A DNA stretch of 64,000 bases, from IMG/VR virus record IMGVR_UViG_3300025276_000022; one strand, given 5' to 3'. The first letter of the stretch is position 1. Every line of letters starts with the position of its first letter. Positions 1,334-57,917 of this stretch are shown here, one piece after another. Position numbers and translations under genes: made by a program. This stretch comes from a virus. A model generated the notes under the pieces. That model saw only the letters and a program-made list of their open reading frames with translations. It made no database searches and had not been told where the DNA came from.

Positions 1334-1362
1334 TTGACAGACAGCGCTAAATAATGTATAAT
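1334..1362 (+). promoter_or_regulatory. Sigma70-type early promoter
   Basis: TTGACA-17nt-TATAAT. Confidence 0.85.
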
Positions 1363-1388: not shown

Positions 1389-2537
1389 ATGAATTATCAA
1401 CCATACAATCTCCAAGATGTCTATGACGCGGCATCTCAGAAAAAATTTAAAGTAGTGTCTACGTTCGCTGGCGGTGGTGGTTCATCCACTGGATACCGAC
1501 TGGCAGGTGCTGACATTCTCGCAGTTAACGAGTTCGTCGAAGAAGCACGGGTCACCTATAAAGAGAACTATCCGGACACTCCAATTCTTCCCGACGATAT
1601 CAAACAACTATCTGGTAAAGATTTCCTAGAGCTCACTGGTCTCAAGAAAGGTGAACTGGATATTCTTGACGGATCTCCTCCTTGCTCTGCATTTTCTGTT
1701 GCAGGCAAACTCTCTCATTCATCTGATGGTAAACACTCTGATGGTTGGGGACAGACCAAGTCCTATAGTGACGGTAAGATTGTCGAGAACATCGAAGACT
1801 TGTTCTTTGAGTTCTTACGTGTAGCTAAAGAAATCTCCCCCAAGGTAATCATCGCAGAGAATGTTAAAGGTCTGACCATTGGTGAGGCAAAAGAATACTA
1901 CAACCGCATCCTTAATGAATTCGAGAATATTGGATATGAGGTTGTCTCTGAGGTTATGGATTCTCGTTACTACGGTGTCTCTCAGACTCGTACTCGTGTA
2001 ATCTTCATTGCCGTAAGACAAGATGTTGCCGACGAGGTTGGGTTAAACTTCCTAACTATGAATCACTTGTTCCCTGCACCAAGCCGCACAGCGATCCCTC
2101 TCAAGGATGTTCTGGTTGGTCTGGAGTATGATAACGAAGAAGTCGAGTACCTAACAGAGAAGTTCGAAAGAACTGCGTACTGGAAAGATACTGGATCTCT
2201 GATGCCAACCTTTCCTGATAAAGTTTTGACTGGGGGTGACTATCATCCGAAAGGTCACCACTTCAATCTCAAGAGAGTATCGCTCGAAGTCCCTGCCCCT
2301 ACTCTTACTGCGATGGGTAGCGGAGATACTACTGCTGGTGCATTTCATTGGAGTGATCCAAGAAAGTTGACACTAGGTGAATTAAAGCGTATAATGTCAC
2401 TACCCGATGACTTTAAACTAACGGGCAAGTGGAACCAGAAGGCAGAACGTATTGGTCGTATGGTACCACCATTAATGATGAAACAGATTGCTGAGTCAGT
2501 CTATGATAACGTATTGAAGGTATATAATGAAAGATAG
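1389..2537 (+). CDS. DNA cytosine-C5 methyltransferase, probable carboxymethyltransferase
   Basis: Motifs FAGGGG (I), GSPPC (IV), ENV (VI), QTRTR (VIII); motif X reads GRMVPP instead of GN(A/S)VP. Confidence 0.9.
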   Translation: MNYQPYNLQDVYDAASQKKFKVVSTFAGGGGSSTGYRLAGADILAVNEFVEEARVTYKENYPDTPILPDDIKQLSGKDFLELTGLKKGELDILDGSPPCSAFSVAGKLSHSSDGKHSDGWGQTKSYSDGKIVENIEDLFFEFLRVAKEISPKVIIAENVKGLTIGEAKEYYNRILNEFENIGYEVVSEVMDSRYYGVSQTRTRVIFIAVRQDVADEVGLNFLTMNHLFPAPSRTAIPLKDVLVGLEYDNEEVEYLTEKFERTAYWKDTGSLMPTFPDKVLTGGDYHPKGHHFNLKRVSLEVPAPTLTAMGSGDTTAGAFHWSDPRKLTLGELKRIMSLPDDFKLTGKWNQKAERIGRMVPPLMMKQIAESVYDNVLKVYNER

Positions 2538-3246
2538 AGAAAGCACAACCCATAGAGATTTTACATTCGGTCACCGCGAAGAAGGTTTCGATAATCATAT
2601 CGATGCTTCGATTCGCCACTACTCCTCACTACACGATGACGTAGTAAACTTATCTCGTTACTTTGTAGAGAACGATACTAAGGTTGTAGACATTGGATGT
2701 AGTACAGGTAAGACCATCGAAGCCATGGTCAAACAGAATCATGAAACTGCGCCCAATGCACATTACTGTGGTGTTGAGTATGCCGAAGTGTTTCAAGCAG
2801 AGATGACTGATCGAGAAAAGAGACTTAATGGTGAAGGTCATCATATCTGTTTTCAAAACAAGAACATCATCCACCACAACTTTTCAAACTGTTCTCTTGT
2901 AACTTCTATCTTCACGTTGCAGTTCATGCAACCGCTATGGAGAAAGAAGGTAATGCAAAACATCTATGATGGTCTTAACGAAGGCGGTGCGTTCATCTTT
3001 GCCGAGAAGACTTATTCAGAGAACTCACGTATCCAAGATATGATAACCTCTACGTTCTATGAGTACAAAGCAGAGCACTTCACCTATGAAGATATTATGG
3101 AGAAAGAGAAGACTCTCCGAACTATGTTGAAACCAATGACTTGGAACGAGCTTGTCGCTCTACTAACCTCAGTTGGTTTTGATTCGACAAAGATTCAACC
3201 GTTCTGGATGAATCATTTGTTCGTCGGTGCTATTGCAATAAAGTAA
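2527..3246 (+). CDS. cmoA: CmoA-like carboxy-S-adenosylmethionine synthase
   Basis: DFTF..F..HI..SI..Y, VVDIGCSTG, FTLQF, IYDGLNEGGAFIFAEK align with bacterial CmoA. Confidence 0.85.
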   Translation: MKDRESTTHRDFTFGHREEGFDNHIDASIRHYSSLHDDVVNLSRYFVENDTKVVDIGCSTGKTIEAMVKQNHETAPNAHYCGVEYAEVFQAEMTDREKRLNGEGHHICFQNKNIIHHNFSNCSLVTSIFTLQFMQPLWRKKVMQNIYDGLNEGGAFIFAEKTYSENSRIQDMITSTFYEYKAEHFTYEDIMEKEKTLRTMLKPMTWNELVALLTSVGFDSTKIQPFWMNHLFVGAIAIK

Positions 3247-3265
3247 ATTATTTAGCTATAAGCCC

Positions 3266-3294
3266 TTGACTTTTGTTTCGAAAAGAGGTATAAT
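3266..3294 (+). promoter_or_regulatory. Early promoter of the TTGACTTTTGTTT cassette family
   Basis: TTGACT-17-TATAAT; near-identical to 45817-45845 and shares the GAGTTGAGAGAGA leader. Confidence 0.85.
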
Positions 3295-3332
3295 AGGTAC
3301 TTAGTTAATCGAGTTGAGAGAGAAAATATATT

Positions 3333-4820
3333 ATGATTGCGACGAACTCTACCCACATACATAAAATTGTTTGCGAAGAACTTGTGTCTAAATCTCATGA
3401 GGCGTACACCTACAAGTGGACTATCAAAGACCCTGATAGCAATAAAACCTATTTTTATGGTGGTCGCAGACATAACGAGTATCAGCCTAATGCGTATATG
3501 CATTCAAGTAAGAATGCTAAATTTCTTGACATTCTTAGTAAGAGTAAGGATGTAACATATGAGGTCACTTCTGTAGGTACTCATGAAGAGGCAGCGCTCG
3601 AAGAGGCTCGAATGTTAACAGACTCTAAAGCTAAGAGTTCAGAATATTGGTTTAACTCTACCAATGGTTTAGGTGGTAAAGGTGGTAAAGGTGTTGGTAA
3701 AACATTATTTTTAGACACTCTCACTAGTGAGATGAAACGTCTTATGAACGGTGAAGAAAACCTTAAACCAGACCAAGTCGGGCCTATGGGTATCACCAAG
3801 GGCAACTACTCAAAAGCAGATTTAAGAGATATTGTTGTTATCCGACAACAATTCGTACAAACGCGTTCATACCAATTTAATTCCTCTCACGTATCTACTT
3901 TGGCGGAAGGGTTTGATAAGAAATCTGACCCAAATGAATGGGAACCTATTGTCGTTCTTCTGGATGCTAAGGTAATAGATAACAAAGTAGTATATTGTGA
4001 CAAAGGTGGCGTAGTTGTTATTTCAGGTAATCACCGTTCGCGTGGTTTAGTACGTTCTACTAATGGAGTATCTTTGAATGCCTATAACATTCCCCATAAG
4101 TCTTGGGAAAAATTAGACGACATAGACATGAGAACGTTATCTAATAGATTTAACCCAAACCCTGAAAAACCTGTACTCAAGCAAGACCCTGAAGCGGCCG
4201 CAGCATGGGTCTTGGGTTGGTGTGAAAATAGAGGTCTAACAAAGATTGCTGATGATGGAGTTACAAAGATACCTGATATTAAACACTCCCTCGTTAAAAA
4301 GGAACTTATCGAAGTTAATAACTACACTCAGGGCGATTTCAATAGTGTTATAAAAGAGTGCCAGAAAAAAATCGAGAAACAATTTATAGCTGATGGAGAT
4401 AATATGCTAGATTGGGCAGACGCGGCTATGTCTCTAGACCCTGTCTTAGCTGGTACCCTTGACCATTATAAAACGAGGTTAATAGACGAAGGGCAACATA
4501 CCGATGTTTATAAGATTTCAGGTAAGGTTCTTAACTGGGGTAAACTCTCAGATAGGATTTATGATAAAAAACAATGCGAGATTAAGACCCATCATAACTT
4601 ATTGGTATTAGTGTACCATGCGACTAAGGAAGATATGAAGGAGTGTAAAAAGGGTCTATATAAAAAATGTAAAGTATTCTCAGATGATTTTATTGCGGGT
4701 AAACCAGACCGTAAAATTGAGTATATGCATCTGCCTATCACCAAGTCATACCTTCAATATAAAAGCCCGTTGAAGCTTGACTATGATATTGTTTGCGATA
4801 AACTAGTAGAAGGTTTGTAA
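3333..4820 (+). CDS. Seg-like GIY-YIG domain fused to a ParB/Srx-like domain
   Basis: N-terminal YTY..FYGG..YMHSS..E..WFNSTN pattern; central PIVVL..ISGNHR ParB-like motif. Confidence 0.6.
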   Translation: MIATNSTHIHKIVCEELVSKSHEAYTYKWTIKDPDSNKTYFYGGRRHNEYQPNAYMHSSKNAKFLDILSKSKDVTYEVTSVGTHEEAALEEARMLTDSKAKSSEYWFNSTNGLGGKGGKGVGKTLFLDTLTSEMKRLMNGEENLKPDQVGPMGITKGNYSKADLRDIVVIRQQFVQTRSYQFNSSHVSTLAEGFDKKSDPNEWEPIVVLLDAKVIDNKVVYCDKGGVVVISGNHRSRGLVRSTNGVSLNAYNIPHKSWEKLDDIDMRTLSNRFNPNPEKPVLKQDPEAAAAWVLGWCENRGLTKIADDGVTKIPDIKHSLVKKELIEVNNYTQGDFNSVIKECQKKIEKQFIADGDNMLDWADAAMSLDPVLAGTLDHYKTRLIDEGQHTDVYKISGKVLNWGKLSDRIYDKKQCEIKTHHNLLVLVYHATKEDMKECKKGLYKKCKVFSDDFIAGKPDRKIEYMHLPITKSYLQYKSPLKLDYDIVCDKLVEGL

Positions 4821-5687
4821 TTGATACGAGACTTACTTATCGACCACATAACAGGAAAGGTGCCGCACGATAAGGTTGCGGTACTTCTTTCTGGTGGTGT
4901 TGACAGTATCAGTGTGGCAATCGCTGCACAGGATGCTGGGAAGACTGTACACGCGTATAGTTTCCATCTCGAAGGACAACCATCTTATGACCATGCGAAG
5001 GCAAAAGAAGTCGCAGAAATCATGGGGTGGGAGTTCACCACTATTATCGTCCCTACTGATAACCTAGTTGAAGACTGGCACCGACTAGTCAAACATGGTT
5101 GTCGCAAGAAATCCCACTACGAAGCCGCAGTGTTTCCCTTCCTCTATTGTTATGAAAACATGTTAGAAGAATACTGTATTACTGGATGGGGTGCAGACGC
5201 CTACTTCGGTTGCAGTAAGAAAGCAATGATACGATACTCTTCTTTTAAAAAGAAGCGCAACTACGTCAAGTACTGTAAAGAGAACAACCAGACGAGAGTT
5301 AACTGGAATGAGTTCCGTAATGCCTATCTAGACGGAGACTGTGCAGGACTACAGCAACACACCAATCTTGCAGAGAAGCATGGTAAGGTGCATGTCACTC
5401 CATATCTAGACCCACGCGTACGCGAGTACTTTATGAAGTTTTCGTGGGAAGAACTCAACAAACCAAAACAAAAGAATATAATCCGTGAAGAATTTAATAT
5501 TGAAGATCTGTTTGGGAAAGTCAAGCCCCATATCAATCTTCAGTTGGGTAGTGGTATTGATACACTGTTCGAGACTCTTCTGGATAATCCGGAGGTAAAC
5601 TATAAAAGAAGACAGCGAGTGATGGACATGTGCCGCGACTGGTACACCGATCATACTACTTCTAATCTTTCTGATTTCATGTCTTGA
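4821..5687 (+). CDS. Asparagine synthase-like PP-loop ATP-dependent amide ligase (no glutaminase domain)
   Basis: LLSGGVDS PP-loop, ITGWGADAYFG, TPYLD and KNIIR motifs; TTG start. Confidence 0.8.
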   Translation: MIRDLLIDHITGKVPHDKVAVLLSGGVDSISVAIAAQDAGKTVHAYSFHLEGQPSYDHAKAKEVAEIMGWEFTTIIVPTDNLVEDWHRLVKHGCRKKSHYEAAVFPFLYCYENMLEEYCITGWGADAYFGCSKKAMIRYSSFKKKRNYVKYCKENNQTRVNWNEFRNAYLDGDCAGLQQHTNLAEKHGKVHVTPYLDPRVREYFMKFSWEELNKPKQKNIIREEFNIEDLFGKVKPHINLQLGSGIDTLFETLLDNPEVNYKRRQRVMDMCRDWYTDHTTSNLSDFMS

Positions 5688-5718: not shown

Positions 5719-8196
5719 ATGACAAAATTTTACTCTTCTGCTATCCGTATGGGTAAGCACATTCTATATCGCGGTTACGAGAACGGCCTACAGGTCAAGA
5801 AACGTATTCCATTCCAACCTAAACTATATGTCACCAGTCAGAACGAATCTGATTGGAAGACTCTGGACGGTCTCCCCGTTGCCGAGTGCGTCTTGGACTC
5901 TATGTCTGATGCGACTGACTTCCTCAAGAAGTATGCTGATGTGCATAACTTCAAGGTATATGGTAACAACAATTACGTTGCCCAGTATATCGGTGAACAA
6001 TTTCCCAATAAGATAAACTTCGACCGCGATCTAATCCGGACTGCCAATATCGATATCGAGGTTTATAGTAAGGAAGGTTTCCCTGAGCCAGGCAAGGCTG
6101 CATATCCAGTGACCTCTATTACAATGCGCAAGAATGATGGCACCTACTGGGTGTGGGCATGTGGAGACTATGTCACTACTCGTGAAGAAGTCCTCTATAT
6201 CAAATGCGACAACGAGATGGATCTTCTCCGCAAGTTTATTGAGCACTGGTCTCACTACGCTCCTGACATTCTGACAGGTTGGAACAGTCGGTTCTTCGAT
6301 ATCCCATACATCGTTAACCGTTGCGTTAACCTGTTCGGTGATGACACGTTATTGAAACGACTATCTCCTTGGGGTGCGGTACGTGAACGTAATGTAACTA
6401 TTCAAGGTCGCGCCAATCAGGAATACGTGATTGAAGGTGTCGAGCACCTAGATTACATTGAAATCTTTAAGAAGTTCACACTCAACACTCTGGGTCAACA
6501 AGAATCCTATCGTCTAGACCATATCGCCCACGTTGTCTTGGGTGAACGCAAGTTGTCCTATGAGGAGCACGGAAACCTCCACGCTCTTTATGAAAACGAC
6601 TTCCAAAAGTTTATTGACTATAACATCAAAGACGTGGAGTTGGTTCACAAGATCGATGAGAAACTCGACTTGATTACTCTGGTACTCACCATGGCATATC
6701 GTGGTGGTGTTAACTATGGTGACACACTTGGTACTACTAACATCTGGGACAGCATCATCTACCGTATGCTGAACAAGATGAAGGTCGTAGTTCCTTCCAA
6801 ATCTGAGAAGCCTAAGACTTCATATCCGGGCGGTTATGTTAAAGAACCTCAAGTTGGGTCACACGACTGGGTTACCTCTTTTGATTTGGCGTCTCTATAT
6901 CCCAACATCATTGTTCAATATAACATGTCACCTGAGACTGTGATGGACGGTTTCCATAATGGTGTAAGCGTCGATAAGTTTCTTGATGGATCATACAAGG
7001 TATCTGAGTCTAACGTCTCTATTGCGCCAACTGGAGTCGCTTTCTCACATGATAGAGAGGGGGTCATTCCTACGGTGATTAAACAATACTACACGGAACG
7101 TAGTCTTATCAAGAAGGAGATGTTGAAACTCCAGCAGGAATACCAGAAGAATCCGACTAATGCTTTGGCCTATAGGATATCGTCACTGGACAACCAACAG
7201 ATGGCTATCAAGATTCTTATGAACTCCCTCTATGGTGCGCTCGGTAATCGATACTTCCGTTACTTTGATCAACGTGTTGCAGAGTCAATTACTCTTGCAG
7301 GGCAACTTGCAATCAAATGGGCAGAGAGAGCAGCCAATAATGAGATGCAGAAACTTCTTAAAACAGATGAAGATTATGTTGTAGCAATTGACACGGATTC
7401 TCTATACATTCGTATGTCTGCCCTTGTGGATAAGTTTTCTCCTAAAGACCCTGTAAAGTTTCTTGACAAGATATGTTCCGAGCACTTCGAGAAAGTTCTG
7501 GAAAATTCTTATAATGAGATGGCAGAAGTTACTGGTGCGTACGAGAATCGTATGGTGATGGAACGTGAGGTAATCGCAGACCGTGGTATCTGGATGGCGA
7601 AGAAACGATATATCCTTAATGTGCATAACTCTGAGGGTGTGCAGTACGCAGAACCTAAACTCAAGATGATGGGTATCGAGGCAATCAAGTCATCGACTCC
7701 TTCGGTTGTCCGTGACAAGATGAAAGAAATCTTCCGCGTCATTGTAGAAGGTACCGAGGAAACCACCCAGAGATTTATCCGTGAGTTCAAGACTCTGTTT
7801 AATACATTACCACCCGAAGATGTTTCGTGGCCCCGTGGTATCTCTAATCTCGATAAGTGGAAAGACCGAGAGACTATTTTCAAGAAGGGTACTCCCATAC
7901 ATGTTCGCGGTGCGTTATGTTATAACAATCTAATCAAGGAGAATAATCTTGGTAATAGATATGAACTGGTCAAGCCAGGCGAGAAGGTAAAGTTCGTCTA
8001 TCTAAAAGTACCGAATCGTCTGGGTGAAAACGTTGTGGCATATCCTCAACATCTCCCCGAAGAACTGGGACTGGGTAAGTATATCGATTACGACTTAATG
8101 TTCAGTAAGACTTTCATTGCCCCTCTCGAACCAATTCTTGATGCAGTCGGTTGGGCTTCTGAACCTCGTGCCACATTGGAGGACTTCTTCGGATGA
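5719..8196 (+). CDS. 43: Family B DNA polymerase (T4 gp43-like)
   Basis: DIEV exonuclease motif, [27 protein letters not shown]; C-terminal clamp-binding LEDFF. Confidence 0.97.
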
Positions 8197-8609
8197 TCAC
8201 AGACTTTTGCGTTATATGCGGAACGAAAGAAAATCTTCATAACCATCATATTGTTTGTAAGAAGAGTAAACTGAAACCAATATCTGGCGACATTGATCAT
8301 TATACAAACCTCATAACTCTCTGTGGAGAACATCATGGGTGGATTCATGGTATGAAACCTAATAGATTCAATGACAATAACCGTTTAAGAACGGCTGGAA
8401 TAAAGAAAGCACAGAAAGAAGGAAAGTATCTTGGACGTGTTCCAACTGCGCAAAGAAAGTCTAAAGAGATTCAGAGATTGCATTCAGAAGGAATGAAACC
8501 GGCATTAATTGCAAAGGAACTCAACATAGGAGTCGCGAGTGTCTACCGATATAGAGAAAAAGAAAAAAAACAAAAGCAAATGACAGATCAAGCGCAATTC
8601 TTCGGTTGA
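8193..8609 (+). CDS. HNH endonuclease with C-terminal resolvase-type HTH
   Basis: CVIC..HHI..NLITLC..HH..IH, then [20 protein letters not shown]. Confidence 0.8.
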
Positions 8610-8640: not shown

Positions 8641-9582
8641 ATGAATTACGAATTAACTATATTTAAAAATCAGTTCGATAACAAGACCCATCGTCATATG
8701 GTTCTTGACGATTGGTATAAGTTCGTAAATGTCCTGAAGAACATGTATAAAGAGAAAGGAGAGAAAGGTGGAAATAATTCTAGTCCTCTTGTTAGTCCTG
8801 CTGTTTTCGAAGTGGATACTACGCGTAGTAATAAATCTACTCGCTATTGGGGTGGGTGGTGTTGCGTTGATGTTGATGATCATAATTTCTCTAGCGATGT
8901 TCGAGTCCTTAACCAAGAGTTGCACGAACTCTTTGGCCAGTACGACTACGTTGTGTACAACACTGCATCAAGCAGAGACGACCATCTCAAGTTTAGAATC
9001 GTATTTCGACTAGATGAACATATCGATAATGCTCGGATCAAGGCATTCTGGTATGCACTGAATACTGAACTGGGTGAGATGGGAGATCCACAGACCAAAG
9101 ATCTTGCACGTATGTATTATGTTCCTGCACAGTACCCTAATGCGACTTCGTTCTTCATTACTAATCAAGGGTCTGCTCTAAACACATCTGAGTTGATCGC
9201 AAAACATCCTTACCATGAAAAGACTGGTAATTCTTTCTTAGACAGACTACCTGTAGAGATGCAACAGGCAGTTATACAACATCGTAAGGACAGTCTAAAT
9301 AATACCGACTACAATTGGTCGACATACCGTGACTGTCCGTTCTGGCCCAAACGATTGGGTGTAGAGTACCAAACTATCAATGATGGTGGTTGGTACGCTA
9401 AGATGTATAAGATTATGCTTGCAGTTGCTGGGAATGCATATGCGAAAGGTTACCCTATCACCGCAAGTCAGATCTCAGATATGTGTCGTGATTTTGATCG
9501 TGAGACAGGTAACTGGTATGAAAACCGCCCATTGACCGTAGAGGCTGATAGGGCATTAGAATATATTTACAGGAATAGTTAA
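8641..9582 (+). CDS. AEP-superfamily primase/polymerase-like protein
   Basis: VDVDD, YNTASS..KFRIVF and DPQTKDLARMYY motifs. Confidence 0.65.
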   Translation: MNYELTIFKNQFDNKTHRHMVLDDWYKFVNVLKNMYKEKGEKGGNNSSPLVSPAVFEVDTTRSNKSTRYWGGWCCVDVDDHNFSSDVRVLNQELHELFGQYDYVVYNTASSRDDHLKFRIVFRLDEHIDNARIKAFWYALNTELGEMGDPQTKDLARMYYVPAQYPNATSFFITNQGSALNTSELIAKHPYHEKTGNSFLDRLPVEMQQAVIQHRKDSLNNTDYNWSTYRDCPFWPKRLGVEYQTINDGGWYAKMYKIMLAVAGNAYAKGYPITASQISDMCRDFDRETGNWYENRPLTVEADRALEYIYRNS

Positions 9583-9583
9583 T

Positions 9584-10522
9584 ATGAATAGAGTATTAGT
9601 AACAGGTGCAGCAGGATTTATCGGTTCACAATTATCGGATCGATTACAGAAACGTGGATTGACAGTGAAAGGTATTGATAATTTCAATAACCATCTATAC
9701 ACTCCTGAATTAAAAGTAGATCGTATGAAACACTTCGATCTAGATATCTGGGGATGTGATCTAAAGGATGAGATAAAGCTCGAAGCGTTATTGAGAGACT
9801 TCCGTCCAGACACTATTATTCATCTTGCCGCAATGGCAGGCGTTCGTGATTCTATGGGAAAAGAGAAGTCGTACCACGCAAATAACATAGATGCTACACA
9901 GAACCTTATTGATATCTGTAAACAACATCTACCAGAGACTCGCATTGTATATGCGTCAACGTCTTGTGTATATGCTGGATCCCCGACTCCGTGGACAGAA
10001 GGTGAAGAGACTGGTAAACAATTAAACGCATATGGTTATACCAAGTGGGCGAATGAATGTCAGATGCAATCGTCTGGTCTAAACACAACTGGTCTACGTT
10101 TCTTCACAGTATATGGCCCTTGGGGTCGTCCTGATATGGCTTTGTTTGACTTTACTAAAAATATACTTGACGGAAAGGAAATAACCGTGTATAATTACGG
10201 TAAGATGAAGAGAGACTTCACTTTCGTAGAAGATATCCTAGACGGTATTGAAGTTGTCTTAGACAATGACGATCTATCGGGAGAGATATTTAATATCGGA
10301 CGTGGTGAACAAGTCGAGTTGCTAGACTTCATTGGTGAGATCGAGAAACAAACTGGGAAGAAAGCAATTAAGAATCTTGCTCCCCAACATCCTGCGGATA
10401 CTTTAGAGACTTGGTCTAATACTGCTAAGTTACAAGCACTTGGTTATGACCCGAAGGTAAGTATCGCAGAGGGTGTTGAAAGATTTTACGAATGGTTTAA
10501 AACTTATAATGGAATCGAATAA
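9584..10522 (+). CDS. NAD-dependent epimerase (UDP-glucuronate 4-epimerase-like)
   Basis: TGAAGFIG, HLAAMAGVR, YGYTK, LRFFTVYGPWGRPDMA. Confidence 0.92.
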   Translation: MNRVLVTGAAGFIGSQLSDRLQKRGLTVKGIDNFNNHLYTPELKVDRMKHFDLDIWGCDLKDEIKLEALLRDFRPDTIIHLAAMAGVRDSMGKEKSYHANNIDATQNLIDICKQHLPETRIVYASTSCVYAGSPTPWTEGEETGKQLNAYGYTKWANECQMQSSGLNTTGLRFFTVYGPWGRPDMALFDFTKNILDGKEITVYNYGKMKRDFTFVEDILDGIEVVLDNDDLSGEIFNIGRGEQVELLDFIGEIEKQTGKKAIKNLAPQHPADTLETWSNTAKLQALGYDPKVSIAEGVERFYEWFKTYNGIE

Positions 10523-21344: not shown

Positions 21345-22760
21345 ATGAAGTATAAAGTACTACTATTATCATCATCTATTTTCCTAGCATCGTGTGGTGG
21401 AGGATCTACTAGTTCCCCTGAACCGATTGCTGTTATTCCCCCAGCACCTACTCCTCTTGAGATATCTATTGGTGAGTTAAGGGATATAATGAACGTGACC
21501 TCTCCTACAGGTTCGTACGAAGGATACATTCTCCCAGAAAGTGATGACTTCTTCAACATCCCCCAAGATCCTAGCAACCCTGTTACTTCTGAGAAAGTAG
21601 AGTTAGGTAAGTTGCTTTATCATGAAACTGGTATGACCTCGTCTGAGACTAGCAAGACCGATATGGTCGACACGTGGTCTTGTGCATCATGTCACAATGG
21701 CCAGAACGGATTCAAGTCTGGTATTCGCCAAGGTATTGGTGAAGGTGGTGTCGGTTTTGATCACCGTACTTTCGCAGAAGGTATGGAAGAACTTGCAGAC
21801 ATACAACCACTAACATCTCCTACTGTATTGAATAGTGCATATCAAGAAGTGATGTTATGGAACGGTCAGTTCGGTAATGTGATGGGCGGTATAGTGAATG
21901 TGGGTATTGACCCTGAACGTCACTTCACCGAAGGTACCCCGAAGGAAGCAAACCTACGACAGTTGTCTGGTCTTGAAACACAAGCAGTTGCCGGTCTAGG
22001 TGTTCACCGAATGGATGTTACTAGTGATGAATCCATCCTTAGTAACAACGAAACCTATCAGATGATGTTTGAGGCTGCATACGGAACTTCACGACCGACC
22101 GATATGTTAGAGGCAGCATCCTTTGCGATTGCCGCATACGAAAGAACTATCCTTGCAAACCGTGCACCATTCCAAACGTTCCTACGTGGAGATGAGACTG
22201 CACTGTCTATAGAGGAAGTAGAAGGTGCAAAAGTATTCTTCGGTAAAGGTAACTGTGCTGGTTGCCACAACGGCCCTGCACTATCATCACCTGTAGGATC
22301 TATGGCGCAAGAAGTGTTTATGACTCTTGGTTTCCATGACTTGGATATGTGGGAAGATACTGTCGGTGAAGTTGGCCAAGCGGTAAAAGAAGGTCGTGCT
22401 GGATTTACTGGTGACAGTATGGAAAAGTTCGCGTTCAAAGTACCGCCACTTTACAATCTTATAGATACTACTGTATTCGGTCATGGTGGTTCATTCACCA
22501 GTGTTGAAGATGTGGTAAGATATAAAGTTGCCGCAGTTCCACAACATCCACAAGTTGAAACGACTGATGTGGACTACCGTTTTGTTCCATTAGATTTGAG
22601 TGAAGAAGATATCTCAAACTTGATTGCATTCTTAGAGCAGAGTTTGTATGATCCAGATTTGATGAGATATGTACCAGACACATTGCCTAGTGGTAACTGT
22701 GTAACCAACAATGACCAGCAGTCACAAGACGACTTAGGATGTACTGACAATGGATTATAA
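21345..22760 (+). CDS. Di-heme cytochrome c peroxidase/MauG-family lipoprotein
   Basis: Lipobox LASC; NP..EKVELGKLL; CASCH and CAGCH heme motifs; FKVPPLYN; GHGG. Confidence 0.9.
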   Translation: MKYKVLLLSSSIFLASCGGGSTSSPEPIAVIPPAPTPLEISIGELRDIMNVTSPTGSYEGYILPESDDFFNIPQDPSNPVTSEKVELGKLLYHETGMTSSETSKTDMVDTWSCASCHNGQNGFKSGIRQGIGEGGVGFDHRTFAEGMEELADIQPLTSPTVLNSAYQEVMLWNGQFGNVMGGIVNVGIDPERHFTEGTPKEANLRQLSGLETQAVAGLGVHRMDVTSDESILSNNETYQMMFEAAYGTSRPTDMLEAASFAIAAYERTILANRAPFQTFLRGDETALSIEEVEGAKVFFGKGNCAGCHNGPALSSPVGSMAQEVFMTLGFHDLDMWEDTVGEVGQAVKEGRAGFTGDSMEKFAFKVPPLYNLIDTTVFGHGGSFTSVEDVVRYKVAAVPQHPQVETTDVDYRFVPLDLSEEDISNLIAFLEQSLYDPDLMRYVPDTLPSGNCVTNNDQQSQDDLGCTDNGL

Positions 22761-45701: not shown

Positions 45702-45845
45702 ATTATATCATACTCGTTTTGAAAACGCAAGGCAATACAGCATTTTCTTTAGAACTTTTTGGCATATAGGGGTGGGCAACTATGCTTTATTGGTATAAAA
45801 ATAATAGTATAATGCCTTGACTTTTGTTTCGAAAACGAGTATAAT
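45702..45845. promoter_or_regulatory. Divergent early promoter pair
   Basis: Minus strand TTGCGT-17-TATAAT (45730-45702); plus strand TTGACT-17-TATAAT (45817-45845). Confidence 0.8.
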
Positions 45846-46176
45846 AGCTACATAAAGTCGAGTTGAGAGAGAGAATTGTTATGATGAAATTTGTATTGCG
45901 AAATGTTGTTAATGACCAGTTGATTGTTAATATGATGTTCGATACCGAAGCAGGTGCTATAGAGTACCGTGAATTGTTCACTGAGAAAGGAACTGCTTGG
46001 ATTGATTACTGTAAGGTTAGTTGGGAAAAATAATAGCTATATAAACTTGAGACGAGAGAGAATATTATGAGTGTAGAGAAAACTGTAACAACCACCACCC
46101 CCCAGCGGCAACTCACAAGCGCAGAGGCGATTGCGGTGTTCCGCAAAGCCCGCGCGGCCGCGAAGGAGAGAGCAGC

Positions 46177-54071: not shown

Positions 54072-55538
54072 ATGAGATACGTGGGTTACAGTGAATTTTA
54101 TCATGATTCAGGTCTAGCTATTATTAGCGAAGATGGTGTTGTGGACTTTGCCACACACGGAGAGCGATACTCCAAGAAGAAGAACGACCCTAATATTCCG
54201 GATGTGTTGTGGGACATGATCAATAAGGATGACCACGTATCATTCTATGAAGATCACAAGATCAAGTTCGACATGCGCGGAGGGTTCGATGGTCTTGCAA
54301 CACTAGCATACCCTAAAGACGCTGAGTACGATACCTTCCATATGCACCACGAATCTCATTGTGCGGCTGCGTTCTACACACGTCCGTGGGAATCGAAGGA
54401 TGACACTGTACTTGTATCTATCGATGGGGTAGGTGAACTACAGACTGCGGTCATCATGGATGCAGACTTCAACCTAATCAAAGAGTGGCACTACCCTAAG
54501 TCGGTAGGTCTAGTCTATACCCTTACTACTAAGTTCCTTGGTCTACGTCCACTCGAAGATGAGTACGTGGTCATGGGTCTCTCTGCGTACCACGATACAT
54601 GCCCGAAGTCTAAGGCAATAACCGATTGGTTGATCCGGTGGTATGATAACCTAGAAGACATCGCACCAGAAGTTGCAATGGGTATTGAGGTAGGGGGTGA
54701 AAATTCTCAACGTGAAGTAGCTCGGGTACGATTTAGATCAGAGTTCGAACGTCGAATCCTATCCGTAGAAGATAAGGTAGCGGCACGTGCTACCCAAGAC
54801 TTCGCAGACTATGCAATCATGAAGATCATGACCGAAGCATCCAAGTACGGTAAGAAACTATGTTACTCCGGTGGTTGCGCACAGAACGTGGTGATCAACT
54901 CTAGGTTGTTCGAACTGTTCGATGAGGTACATATCGCATGTTCACCTACAGACGCTGGTTCCGGTCTGGGTACCGCTGCACGTTCATGGGCCAAGGCGAC
55001 AGGTAAAGATAAGTTGATCTGGTCTCCATACTGTGGGTACGATATCGAACGTCCGGTCGACCCTAGTGAGATCGTAGATCATCTACTCAGTCATAAGGTA
55101 TGCGGTATCGCGAACGGTAAGGCAGAGTTCGGGCCTCGTGCGTTAGGTAACAGATCCCTGATTGCAGACGTACGCTATGACGTACAGGATACAGTGAACG
55201 GAATCAAACGTAGACAGAAGTACCGTCCGTTTGCTCCTGCCATACTAGAAGAGTACGCAGAAGAATATTTCAGTGGCCCTATGAATGACCATATGCAATT
55301 CACTTCAACTGCATTACATGATTACGCACCTGTAACCCACGTAGATGGGACAGCACGTGTACAGATCGTGAAGAAAGACTGTGAGTCGATCTTCCGAAAG
55401 GTAATTGAGGAGTACCATGATAGAACTGGTGTTCCAATGTTACTAAATACTAGTCTCAACATTCGCGGCCGACCAATGGTTAATGACGAACATGACGCCG
55501 AGATGTGGGAACAAAAGTATGATGTGAGGGTGTTCTGA
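54072..55538 (+). CDS. NodU/CmcH carbamoyltransferase
   Basis: HDS, ERYSKKKND, HHESH, DGVGE, GGCAQN, EFGPRALGNRS, LLNTSLN; TATAAATA at 54031. Confidence 0.93.
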   Translation: MRYVGYSEFYHDSGLAIISEDGVVDFATHGERYSKKKNDPNIPDVLWDMINKDDHVSFYEDHKIKFDMRGGFDGLATLAYPKDAEYDTFHMHHESHCAAAFYTRPWESKDDTVLVSIDGVGELQTAVIMDADFNLIKEWHYPKSVGLVYTLTTKFLGLRPLEDEYVVMGLSAYHDTCPKSKAITDWLIRWYDNLEDIAPEVAMGIEVGGENSQREVARVRFRSEFERRILSVEDKVAARATQDFADYAIMKIMTEASKYGKKLCYSGGCAQNVVINSRLFELFDEVHIACSPTDAGSGLGTAARSWAKATGKDKLIWSPYCGYDIERPVDPSEIVDHLLSHKVCGIANGKAEFGPRALGNRSLIADVRYDVQDTVNGIKRRQKYRPFAPAILEEYAEEYFSGPMNDHMQFTSTALHDYAPVTHVDGTARVQIVKKDCESIFRKVIEEYHDRTGVPMLLNTSLNIRGRPMVNDEHDAEMWEQKYDVRVF

Positions 55539-56060: not shown

Positions 56061-56941
56061 AACCATCTGAATTAGTCACTTGGCGAGGAACGCCAGGCGT
56101 AGGTGATTTCATGTGGGCATTGAATTGCTGTCACAAGTATGCCGCGGATCATGATGTATCAAAGATTAATTTGGAACTTCACTGGGAACACGGTGAAGAC
56201 CATAACCATCACTTCGAAGATCCAGAAACGATCATCGAACGATGTAACTACATACACAACTTCTACCATCAACAAGAAAGGGTAGAGATACATCACATAT
56301 TCAATGCTGATGGTAGGTACAAGCATTGGAAGTTTAATGATGATGTTGTTTTGGAAACAAACGGTGATCGTAGGATAGCAGCAATAGACAACCACGGATT
56401 CAAAGCAAGGTTCTTTTTTGAGTCAGGTTACTATGATGATACTCCGGGCTCCGATGCACCGGACAACGATTGGATATTCCGAGAGGATTCCTTCCGAGAC
56501 TATAATCCTAATCGTATTGTGTTCTGGAGACCTACATGGAATGCAGAGAGACCTCGTACATGGAAGCGGATCTTTAACGACTCCGACTGGGATCATCTGA
56601 TAACACACTTCCGTCGTCTAGGGTTCGATATGCATGAACTATCGTATCGTACCCCAGTATCCGAGGCCATGCATTTAATCGCTACCTCACGTATGGTCAT
56701 ATGCTACGATGGTATCTGGCATTACGTCGCAAAGAACTTTGCTCGACCTCTCGCAGTAATCAGTGGTGAGGGTGTGACTAAATACCATACATCGAATGCT
56801 TTAAGACTCAACCCAGAACTACCAAGCGAAGAGATGGGAGCATGGTGGTGGATAGAACATATAGAAGATCTATTAGAACAAACTAAACGTAAATCAGTAG
56901 ACTACGAAGACAGGATGAAGACTTATTATGGAAATGACTAG
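56057..56941 (+). CDS. GT9-like glycosyltransferase
   Basis: GVGD, WKR, YDG..HYVA..PL.VI. Confidence 0.55.
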   Translation: MKPSELVTWRGTPGVGDFMWALNCCHKYAADHDVSKINLELHWEHGEDHNHHFEDPETIIERCNYIHNFYHQQERVEIHHIFNADGRYKHWKFNDDVVLETNGDRRIAAIDNHGFKARFFFESGYYDDTPGSDAPDNDWIFREDSFRDYNPNRIVFWRPTWNAERPRTWKRIFNDSDWDHLITHFRRLGFDMHELSYRTPVSEAMHLIATSRMVICYDGIWHYVAKNFARPLAVISGEGVTKYHTSNALRLNPELPSEEMGAWWWIEHIEDLLEQTKRKSVDYEDRMKTYYGND

Positions 56942-57917
56942 AGAAACATTTCAGATCGACCGAGCAGTAATCGAGGTCGCGGGCGGATGTAACTATTCAT
57001 GCTCTATGTGTCCCCAAGACCTACGTGAAGGTGGTCGACATAAAGGGTTCCGTCGTATCATGAAGCTCGCTGAGTTCGAGAAGTATGTAGCAGACTGTGC
57101 GCAGTACGGACTGAACGTTGTCAACCTAGATGGTTCGGGTGAAGCAACCATGGCGAAGAACCTACCTGAATATATCAAGGTAGTAAAGAAGTATGGTGCC
57201 AAGGCATTCATCTTCTCTAACGGATTCAAGATGACTGGTAAGTACATGAGAGATTGTGTTGATGCCGGACTTGACTTCTATCGATTCTCATTCATCGGTT
57301 CGGACGAACAAGACTACAGTAAGTGGATGCACAATGCAGTAGGCGGACACTACGCTCAGATTAGACGTAACATCGAAGAGATGGTTGCGTACGTCAAAGA
57401 GACTGGTTCAGAGTGTGTCGTATCTACCTACCACCTAATCACCGACAACGATAAGATCGACGAAGAACTAGAGAAGTACAAGACCTTGGTTGATGAACTA
57501 GGCGTCAAGACTGAGATATGGAAGATGCATAACTGGTCTGGTGTTCAGGACATATCGGAGTCAGGCGTACGTGAAGGTAAGAAGAAGACATGTGGACGAC
57601 CGTTCTCTCCGGACGTAGTGATACGTGCTGGTGGTCTAGACAAAAAGACTGGTGCAGTACACCCATGTTGTCAGGTACTTGGACGTGACGAAGAAGCAGT
57701 ATTAGGTCACGCCTCAGAAGATAACATACTTGACATCTTCTTTGGTGAAGAGTACGAGACGCTACGTGAACAGCACCGCACCGAACAATACCCAGACTTC
57801 TGTAAGAGCTGTGACTTCTTAGTTGAAGATCCAGAGGTACTAGTCTACACCAACCACGAACGTGATCTAATGAAGATGCACGGAACTAATTTCACACTTA
57901 ACGACTACAGGGATTAA
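56928..57917 (+). CDS. Radical SAM/SPASM protein
   Basis: CNYSCSMC; C.RPF..PCC..CKSCD. Confidence 0.9.
   Translation: MEMTRETFQIDRAVIEVAGGCNYSCSMCPQDLREGGRHKGFRRIMKLAEFEKYVADCAQYGLNVVNLDGSGEATMAKNLPEYIKVVKKYGAKAFIFSNGFKMTGKYMRDCVDAGLDFYRFSFIGSDEQDYSKWMHNAVGGHYAQIRRNIEEMVAYVKETGSECVVSTYHLITDNDKIDEELEKYKTLVDELGVKTEIWKMHNWSGVQDISESGVREGKKKTCGRPFSPDVVIRAGGLDKKTGAVHPCCQVLGRDEEAVLGHASEDNILDIFFGEEYETLREQHRTEQYPDFCKSCDFLVEDPEVLVYTNHERDLMKMHGTNFTLNDYRD

Follow-up and report, generated by a model that had tools for sequence, protein, structure and literature searches.

Does the viral record IMGVR_UViG_3300025276_000022 (IMG/VR), of which we analysed a stretch of 64,000 nucleotides (the window), encode enzymes that place more than a methyl group on the cytosines of phage DNA? 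The question was raised by two overlapping genes at positions 1,389 to 3,246, a cytosine C5-methyltransferase homologue with an unusual arginine (cmoX) and a homologue of the synthase that makes carboxy-S-adenosylmethionine (cmoA; the cofactor is abbreviated carboxy-SAM or Cx-SAM). A precedent exists in the CmoA-CmoX-CmoY system of Synechococcus phage S-B43 (Yang et al., Nat Commun 2025, PMC12783734), which the sequence-only reading that preceded this analysis had correctly pointed to as a similar pathway from a cyanophage. In that system, SpCmoA converts S-adenosylmethionine (SAM) and prephenate to carboxy-SAM, SpCmoX (PDB 8YF3) places the carboxymethyl group on cytosine C5 at GC sites, and SpCmoY, an Asn-synthetase-like ligase, joins glycine to the new carboxylate (PMC12783734). 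R350 of SpCmoX contacts the carboxymethyl group of the cofactor in 8YF3, the wild-type enzyme takes only Cx-SAM, and the R350N variant is inactive (PMC12783734). We put the probability at about 0.8 that positions 1389-5687 of the window are a post-replicative cytosine hypermodification cassette of this published type, inserted between a backbone gene and the DNA polymerase gene polB.

The product of cmoX (1389..2537, plus strand; 382 residues) matched the C5-methyltransferase family PF00145 over the whole profile (E = 1.8e-52) and the dcm family TIGR00675 (E = 7.8e-44). Its catalytic GSPPC box (Cys99) and its ENV motif (IIAENVKG) are both present, and motif X reads ERIGRMVPPLMM, with Arg357 in GRMVPP (codon 2457-2459) at the position where canonical phage C5-methyltransferases carry GN(A/S)V, which bears out the earlier description of an intact enzyme with arginine in motif X. 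A phmmer comparison with 8YF3 extended over residues 5-377 (E = 4e-154) at 64% identity; the SPPC, ENV and GRMVPPLMM motifs are identical in both proteins, Cys99 and its GSPPC box align to S95-C98 of SpCmoX, and Arg357 aligns to R350. No further DNA methyltransferase was found among the window open reading frames scanned. The closest relatives of CmoX that lack the arginine (loci L087, L088 and L089, from Flavobacterium phage FpV9, Cellulophaga phage phi18:3 and MT835576) are 28-34% identical to it and carry Met (GMSVPP or GMCVPP) in place of Asn; their records contain no CmoA.

Overlapping cmoX by 11 nt, cmoA (2527..3246, plus strand; 239 residues) found its best NCBIfam match in TIGR00740 (E = 9e-30, 104 bits), and its product aligned end to end with the CmoA structures 1im8 and 4gek (~1e-16) and, at 52% identity over 231 residues, with SpCmoA (E = 1e-79). 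The clear CmoA homologue that had been noticed there is thereby upheld, while the caveat attached to it, that the segment KEKTLR (residues 193-198) departs from the E. coli sequence, falls away because the validated SpCmoA reads KEKELR. E. coli CmoA has Q-K-R-S-M-L where the phage CmoA clade has K-E-x-x-L-R, and the longer pattern K-E-x-x-L-R-x-M-x-K was invariant in 76 of 76 alignable phage CmoAs. In some relatives a class I SAM methyltransferase (PF13578, CmcI-like) lies directly 3' of cmoA (L030:3229-4014, L037:9858-10661); by analogy with CmoM and mcmo5U (the methyl ester of uridine 5-oxyacetic acid, cmo5U), one may speculate that it could methyl-esterify the carboxymethyl group.

The arginine of motif X and cmoA occur together. 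Among 80 IMG/VR loci retrieved with the window CmoX as query, the catalytic Cys was present in all 80 and Arg in all 79 that cover motif X, with cmoA directly 3' of cmoX in ~78 of the 80, essentially wherever the contig has room. For a comparison across lineages, C5-methyltransferases of isolated phages were sampled along the similarity ranking and their whole records were searched for CmoA. It was present in five of five records with an Arg-type enzyme (S-B43, S-CRM01, Streptomyces phage TurkishDelight, Erwinia phage pEa_SNUABM_3 and Yersinia phage fHe-Yen9-02; E = 1e-26 or better) and in none of nine whole records with a Met-type (three) or Asn-type (six) enzyme (Fisher p = 1/2002, with the Arg set amounting to only ~3 independent lineages). 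The co-occurrence check that the sequence-only reading had proposed has in this way been run, and it adds an independent negative side to the published picture, in that Arg at motif X predicts cmoA and Asn or Met does not.

These counts bear directly on a simpler explanation, in which CmoX is an ordinary SAM-dependent methyltransferase making 5-methylcytosine (5mC) and its CmoA-like neighbour, unrelated to this activity, methylates RNA or small molecules. For the cmoA product, Pfam gave no more than generic methyltransferase domains, its CmoA score is under the curated cut-off, and the restriction-site footprint described below is blind to the difference between 5mC and 5-carboxymethylcytosine (5cxmC). 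We nevertheless regard this explanation as extremely improbable, since Arg357 occupies the canonical Asn position, wild-type SpCmoX with the identical motif rejects SAM, the arginine tracks cmoA in five of five against none of nine records, and the CmoA homologue is 52% identical to an enzyme proven to make Cx-SAM. In the relatives L007-L011, CmoX proteins 93-95% identical to that of the window are paired with CmoA proteins only 55-59% and CmoY proteins only 35-65% identical, which points to modular recombination at the cmoX/cmoA boundary.

A further member of the cassette, which had not been mentioned in the sequence-only reading, is a gene for a CmoY-like, ATP-dependent amide ligase at 4821..5687 (plus strand; 288 residues, TTG start). 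Its product matched PF00733 (Asn_synthase, E = 2.3e-16), has an intact PP-loop (SGGVDS) and no glutaminase domain, and is 46% identical to SpCmoY in an alignment starting at residue 1 (E = 5e-78); many relatives likewise have such a ligase gene next to cmoX/cmoA, either before or after the pair. Virion DNA of S-B43 contained the glycine amide, 5-glycylcarboxymethylcytosine (5gcxmC), and no detectable 5cxmC (PMC12783734), so that in the window 5cxmC is probably an intermediate, on the way to an end product that is, by analogy, probably its amide. Of the earlier proposal that the phage carboxymethylates its cytosines as armour against restriction, the core therefore stands, namely an Arg-type C5-methyltransferase using the carboxy-SAM of the adjacent CmoA, as homology to the S-B43 enzymes indicates, while 5cxmC gives way to a probable amide as the final form.

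Two other outcomes of the ligase step were weighed. Several close relatives (e.g. L028, L031, L040) have cmoX-cmoA without cmoY in the locus, so the two genes alone appear to be a viable unit, and the window cassette could likewise end at 5-carboxymethylcytosine if its Asn-synthetase-like gene were inactive or acted on a non-DNA substrate. This is quite improbable, given that the window ligase is intact, keeps its PP-loop, matches SpCmoY over its full length and lies in the same block, and that the S-B43 ligase converts all detectable 5cxmC. It is also unlikely that the ligase joins an amine other than glycine, which would yield a cytosine amide not yet described. In favour of another amine, ligase clusters with differing pocket residues and unknown amines have been reported (PMC12783734), the nearly identical CmoX proteins of L007-L011 are paired with divergent CmoY proteins, and the window CmoY differs from SpCmoY by a basic insert. 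The E value of 5e-78 to SpCmoY, however, is well beyond the clustering threshold of 1e-56 used in PMC12783734, which would assign the window CmoY to the cluster of SpCmoY, whose members reportedly retain the residues that bind the glycine carboxylate. A second ligase cluster of that study, predicted to make a primary amide, has an example in an isolated phage, Streptomyces phage TurkishDelight (L084), whose cassette runs from a ParB-like nuclease through an Arg-type CmoX-like methyltransferase and a ligase bearing a glutamine amidotransferase domain to CmoA.

The gene identities and the linkage of the arginine to cmoA are observed in the sequences, whereas how the window enzymes act, at which sequence and with which amine is inferred from the S-B43 enzymes. 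CmoA would combine SAM with host prephenate to give carboxy-SAM; Cys99 of CmoX would then attack cytosine C6, with Arg357 holding the extra carboxylate of the cofactor, and the carboxymethyl group would be moved to C5, most likely at GC dinucleotides, giving 5-carboxymethylcytosine. The PP-loop ligase would adenylate the new carboxylate and couple an amine to it, so that virion DNA would carry an amide, for example 5-glycylcarboxymethylcytosine, and the modification would protect the phage DNA against restriction.

In the window the cassette is flanked upstream by a 266-residue backbone gene (525-1325) and downstream by polB, a gp43-type family B DNA polymerase (5719..8196), which confirms the location near gp43 noted earlier. 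In Phage C48C1 (Kyanoviridae), an 84%-identical copy of the 266-residue gene directly precedes polB, and no C5-methyltransferase or CmoA was found anywhere in the genome; the block of cmoX, cmoA, a 495-residue protein gene and cmoY thus represents inserted DNA within a conserved replication module. C48C1 is also the nearest relative by polB (73% identity), followed by Synechococcus myoviruses at ~46%, and the suggestion that the window derives from a proteobacterial phage found no support. The window has a T4-like phage complement, with UvsX, a DnaB-like helicase, primase, ribonucleotide reductase and eight transfer RNAs (tRNAs). The 266-residue gene itself was considered as a part of the system and rejected, as it adjoins polB in the cassette-less C48C1 and stays with polB in L027 and L035, where cmoX lies elsewhere.

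The restriction-site content of the window shows a footprint centred on GpC. In an unbiased scan, the four most avoided palindromes were GGWCC, CCNGG, GGNCC and CCWGG (z -8.5 to -5.7). Each of the 30 CCNGG sites is preceded by G or followed by C, so that an outer cytosine lies in GpC (expected share ~27%); unflanked CCNGG was absent (0 vs 54-70 expected), and the doubly flanked form GCCNGGC was 6-8x enriched. GGWCC, whose cytosines are never in GpC, was likewise absent (0 vs 50-72 expected), while GGSCC, which contains GpC, was not avoided (36 vs 23-31 expected), and all 36 GGNCC sites in the window contain or overlap GpC. A single rule covers both CCNGG and GGNCC, namely that sites without a GpC cytosine are not tolerated. 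This is the pattern expected of a GC-specific protective modification, and it is consistent with the specificity of SpCmoX.

The footprint extends to the CmoX-bearing relatives (665 kb), in which 13 unflanked CCNGG sites were found against ~480-600 expected. In C48C1, where the same backbone lacks the cassette, 11 unflanked CCWGG and 48 GGWCC sites are tolerated, so codon usage is not the cause of their absence from the window. As further controls, S-B43 and S-CRM01 showed no CCNGG/GGWCC pattern in either genome; their hosts presumably impose different restriction, and both are neutral on the footprint. The pattern hints at the restriction sites (CCNGG, GGNCC) that GC-directed modification counters in nature, and as such it would be a cheap in-silico route to the targets of uncultured CmoX phages. 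Other palindromes were also scarce in the window, namely CTTAAG (1 vs 20 expected), ACCGGT (0 vs 13) and GACGTC (0 vs 11), while GCNGC was over-represented (112 vs 66) and GpC had an overall observed/expected ratio of 0.79.

Several observations weigh against the hypermodification cassette as we read it. Among loci anchored on polB, the footprint was also seen without CmoX in a relative, contig G001 (151 kb, 91% complete), which has 0 unflanked CCNGG sites (21.7 expected) and 14 flanked ones, 0 GGWCC sites (29 expected) and 18 GGSCC sites; no C5-methyltransferase, CmoA or N4/N6 methyltransferase was found in whole-record searches of this contig. Because G001 shows the footprint without a C5-methyltransferase, the pattern is consistent with CmoX and not uniquely attributable to it, and C48C1, with neither CmoX nor the module found in G001, shows a partial bias. 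The target-recognition region is the least conserved part of CmoX relative to SpCmoX, so that GC specificity is a prediction for the window enzyme. The CmoA homologue, at 104 bits, falls short of the 193-bit equivalog cut-off (TIGR00740 / NF011995); the validated SpCmoA falls below it as well (115.6 bits), which indicates a threshold tuned to the bacterial enzymes of the tRNA pathway. Compared with SpCmoY, the window CmoY has an additional basic stretch of 15 residues.

In G001 and its kin, the slot before polB is occupied by a DruA-domain protein (PF14236, ~1e-10) and an unknown partner. The DruA-like pair is found at L121:7603-8766 and 8881-9912, with other DruA-like slot occupants at L113:6753-7916 and L124:7309-8445. 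Across 158 loci, 89 had CmoX, 17 had the DruA-like module and 0 had both. The DruA-like pair may itself protect DNA at GC as an alternative system; otherwise, the exemption of flanked sites must have another cause. That the footprint also occurs where CmoX is lacking is a warning, and it draws attention to the DruA-like genes of this slot as an alternative module not previously recognised.

With the cassette still read as a CmoA-CmoX-CmoY system, its core chemistry has already been published and the window adds a further, confirmatory member. The published survey counted 5,615 candidate CmoX proteins, with 4,257 CmoA proteins, 2,251 ligases and 1,660 ParBc proteins on those contigs, and included IMG/VR (PMC12783734); it very likely covers the lineage of the window already. 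What is of interest here is less the core finding than the restriction-site footprint, the unexplained DruA-like alternative and the putative nuclease fusion described below. S-B43 and the window share a T4-like marine myovirus background, all three enzymes (the window copies of CmoX, CmoA and CmoY being 64%, 52% and 46% identical) and, on the window side by fold, a putative ParB-type gene that accompanies the cassette, as PMC12783734 reports for 1,660 contigs. They differ in gene order, which is cmoA-cmoY-cmoX in S-B43 and cmoX-cmoA-[GIY-YIG/ParB]-cmoY directly upstream of polB in the window, in the apparent fusion of the window ParB-fold protein to a GIY-YIG nuclease domain, and in the insert of the window CmoY.

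Other systems resemble the cassette in part. Use of carboxy-SAM by a C5-methyltransferase has also been obtained by engineering, in M.MpeI N374K (Kohli laboratory; cited in PMC12783734 and PMC13288465), through a basic residue in place of the Asn of motif X; that enzyme has an engineered Lys and acts at CG, whereas the window enzyme has a natural Arg, would probably act at GC and is accompanied by its own cofactor synthase. The CmoA/CmoB pathway of E. coli, which makes cmo5U in tRNA, also starts from SAM and prephenate and yields carboxy-SAM through an enzyme with the fold of 4gek and 1im8. The window, unlike E. coli, has no CmoB, and the predicted acceptor is cytosine C5 of DNA, reached through a Dcm-type enzyme. 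Phage clusters of a 5mC methyltransferase with TET, in which the C5 enzyme sets a handle at GpC that is later elaborated, were reportedly described by Burke et al. (PNAS 2021); the handle there is said to be a methyl group oxidised by TET, whereas in the window it would be a carboxymethyl group amidated by a PP-loop ligase.

Between cmoA and cmoY lies the gene of the 495-residue protein (3333..4820, plus strand), which had no match to any Pfam family, PF02195 included, and whose family profile had no match among PDB sequences. An AlphaFold2 model from a 59-sequence alignment reached a predicted local distance difference test score (pLDDT) of 92.7 and a predicted template modelling score (pTM) of 0.80; a fold from 6 sequences was unusable (pLDDT 57). 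Structural alignment (VIA-align) of the N-terminal domain (~residues 7-114) indicated a GIY-YIG-like fold, with Z values of 6.3 for I-TevI (81/92 residues), 4.1 for T4 EndoII and 4.0 for UvrC. The central domain (~120-350), which includes an SGNHRSRG box, resembles the ParB/sulfiredoxin fold (sulfiredoxin Z 7.2, pNOB8 ParB-N Z 7.1, PadC Z 6.5, KorB Z 6.3); Foldseek gave ParB/Noc/KorB probabilities of 0.97-1.0, but with E above 1e-3. The C-terminal domain had no clear structural match. Residues Y25, Y27, Y42, G44, R45, H47, E85/86, N108 and the SGNHRSRG box are invariant among close homologues, and Pfam recognized GIY-YIG in only 3 of the 59 family members. The modelled assignment to GIY-YIG and ParB folds is middling in its Z values, which are mutually consistent and accompanied by invariant motif residues.

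The 495-residue family is rare (6 clusters, 67 representatives), and its gene recurs in only 1 of the 158 related loci. In the closest relative, L003 (cmoX 99% and cmoA 100% identical), the sequence is identical through the -35 box of the slot-gene promoter and then continues into a different gene of 330 residues; other relatives have yet other slot genes, one of them a class I methyltransferase. ParB-like genes are annotated directly beside CmoX-like genes in Streptomyces and Yersinia phages, and a ParB-type companion of CmoX was noted, without explanation, in PMC12783734. A ParB-type accessory is a recurring, swappable companion of the cassette, and the GIY-YIG fusion, as far as seen, appears particular to the small 495-residue family. 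ParB_N also appeared in 12% of one Atlas cluster for the slot proteins of relatives, which is only a lead. From its modelled domains, the fusion could act in homing, like the Seg endonucleases, or could be a nuclease of the EndoII kind that spares modified DNA.

A broader proposal would join these slot observations to the DruA-like module. The gap between the 266-residue gene and polB would be a hot spot of interchangeable GC-directed protection modules, the DruA-like pair would be a new system unrelated to methyltransferases, and the 495-residue fusion would discriminate between modified and unmodified DNA (cf. T4 EndoII) rather than act in homing. We consider this combination unlikely; if it were true, the DruA-domain protein and its partner would give the same GpC-conditional immunity to restriction at CCNGG and GGNCC.

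Around the genes of the proposed cassette, a perfect TTGACA-17-TATAAT element (1334..1362, plus strand; 12/12 match) lies upstream of cmoX and is suggestive of a sigma70-type promoter, and a second one (2367..2395, plus strand; 12/12) lies within cmoX, ~130 nt 5' of cmoA; the consensus promoter scan overall showed no enrichment over shuffles. The slot gene is preceded by a promoter and leader of its own (3262..3332, plus strand), ~88% identical to 45813-45884, and the window has 3 copies of the 20-mer core of this element where 0 are expected. The shared copies were considered as proof of mobility and rejected, as the resemblance is real but reflects a promoter class.

At the window start, a PhyH-family 2-oxoglutarate/Fe(II) dioxygenase gene (1-528, truncated by the window start) was considered as an extra tailoring enzyme, for example for side-chain or glycyl hydroxylation, and rejected as unlinked to the cassette. 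PhyH lies upstream of the backbone gene in 4 of 30 CmoX loci and in 6 of 29 loci that lack both modules, the homologues nearest to it (75-76%) sit in cassette-less loci, and cmoY is absent from all relatives that have both PhyH and CmoX. PhyH is a sporadic accessory gene. Directly 3' of polB, the window encodes a 138-residue HNH + HTH_7 protein (8193-8609), probably a homing endonuclease, and C48C1 has a Dam-like N6-adenine methyltransferase (PF02086) at the equivalent position. Unusual cargo elsewhere in the window includes a di-haem cytochrome c peroxidase/MauG-family protein (21345-22760), a carbamoyltransferase (54072-55538) and a radical SAM/SPASM protein (56928-57917).

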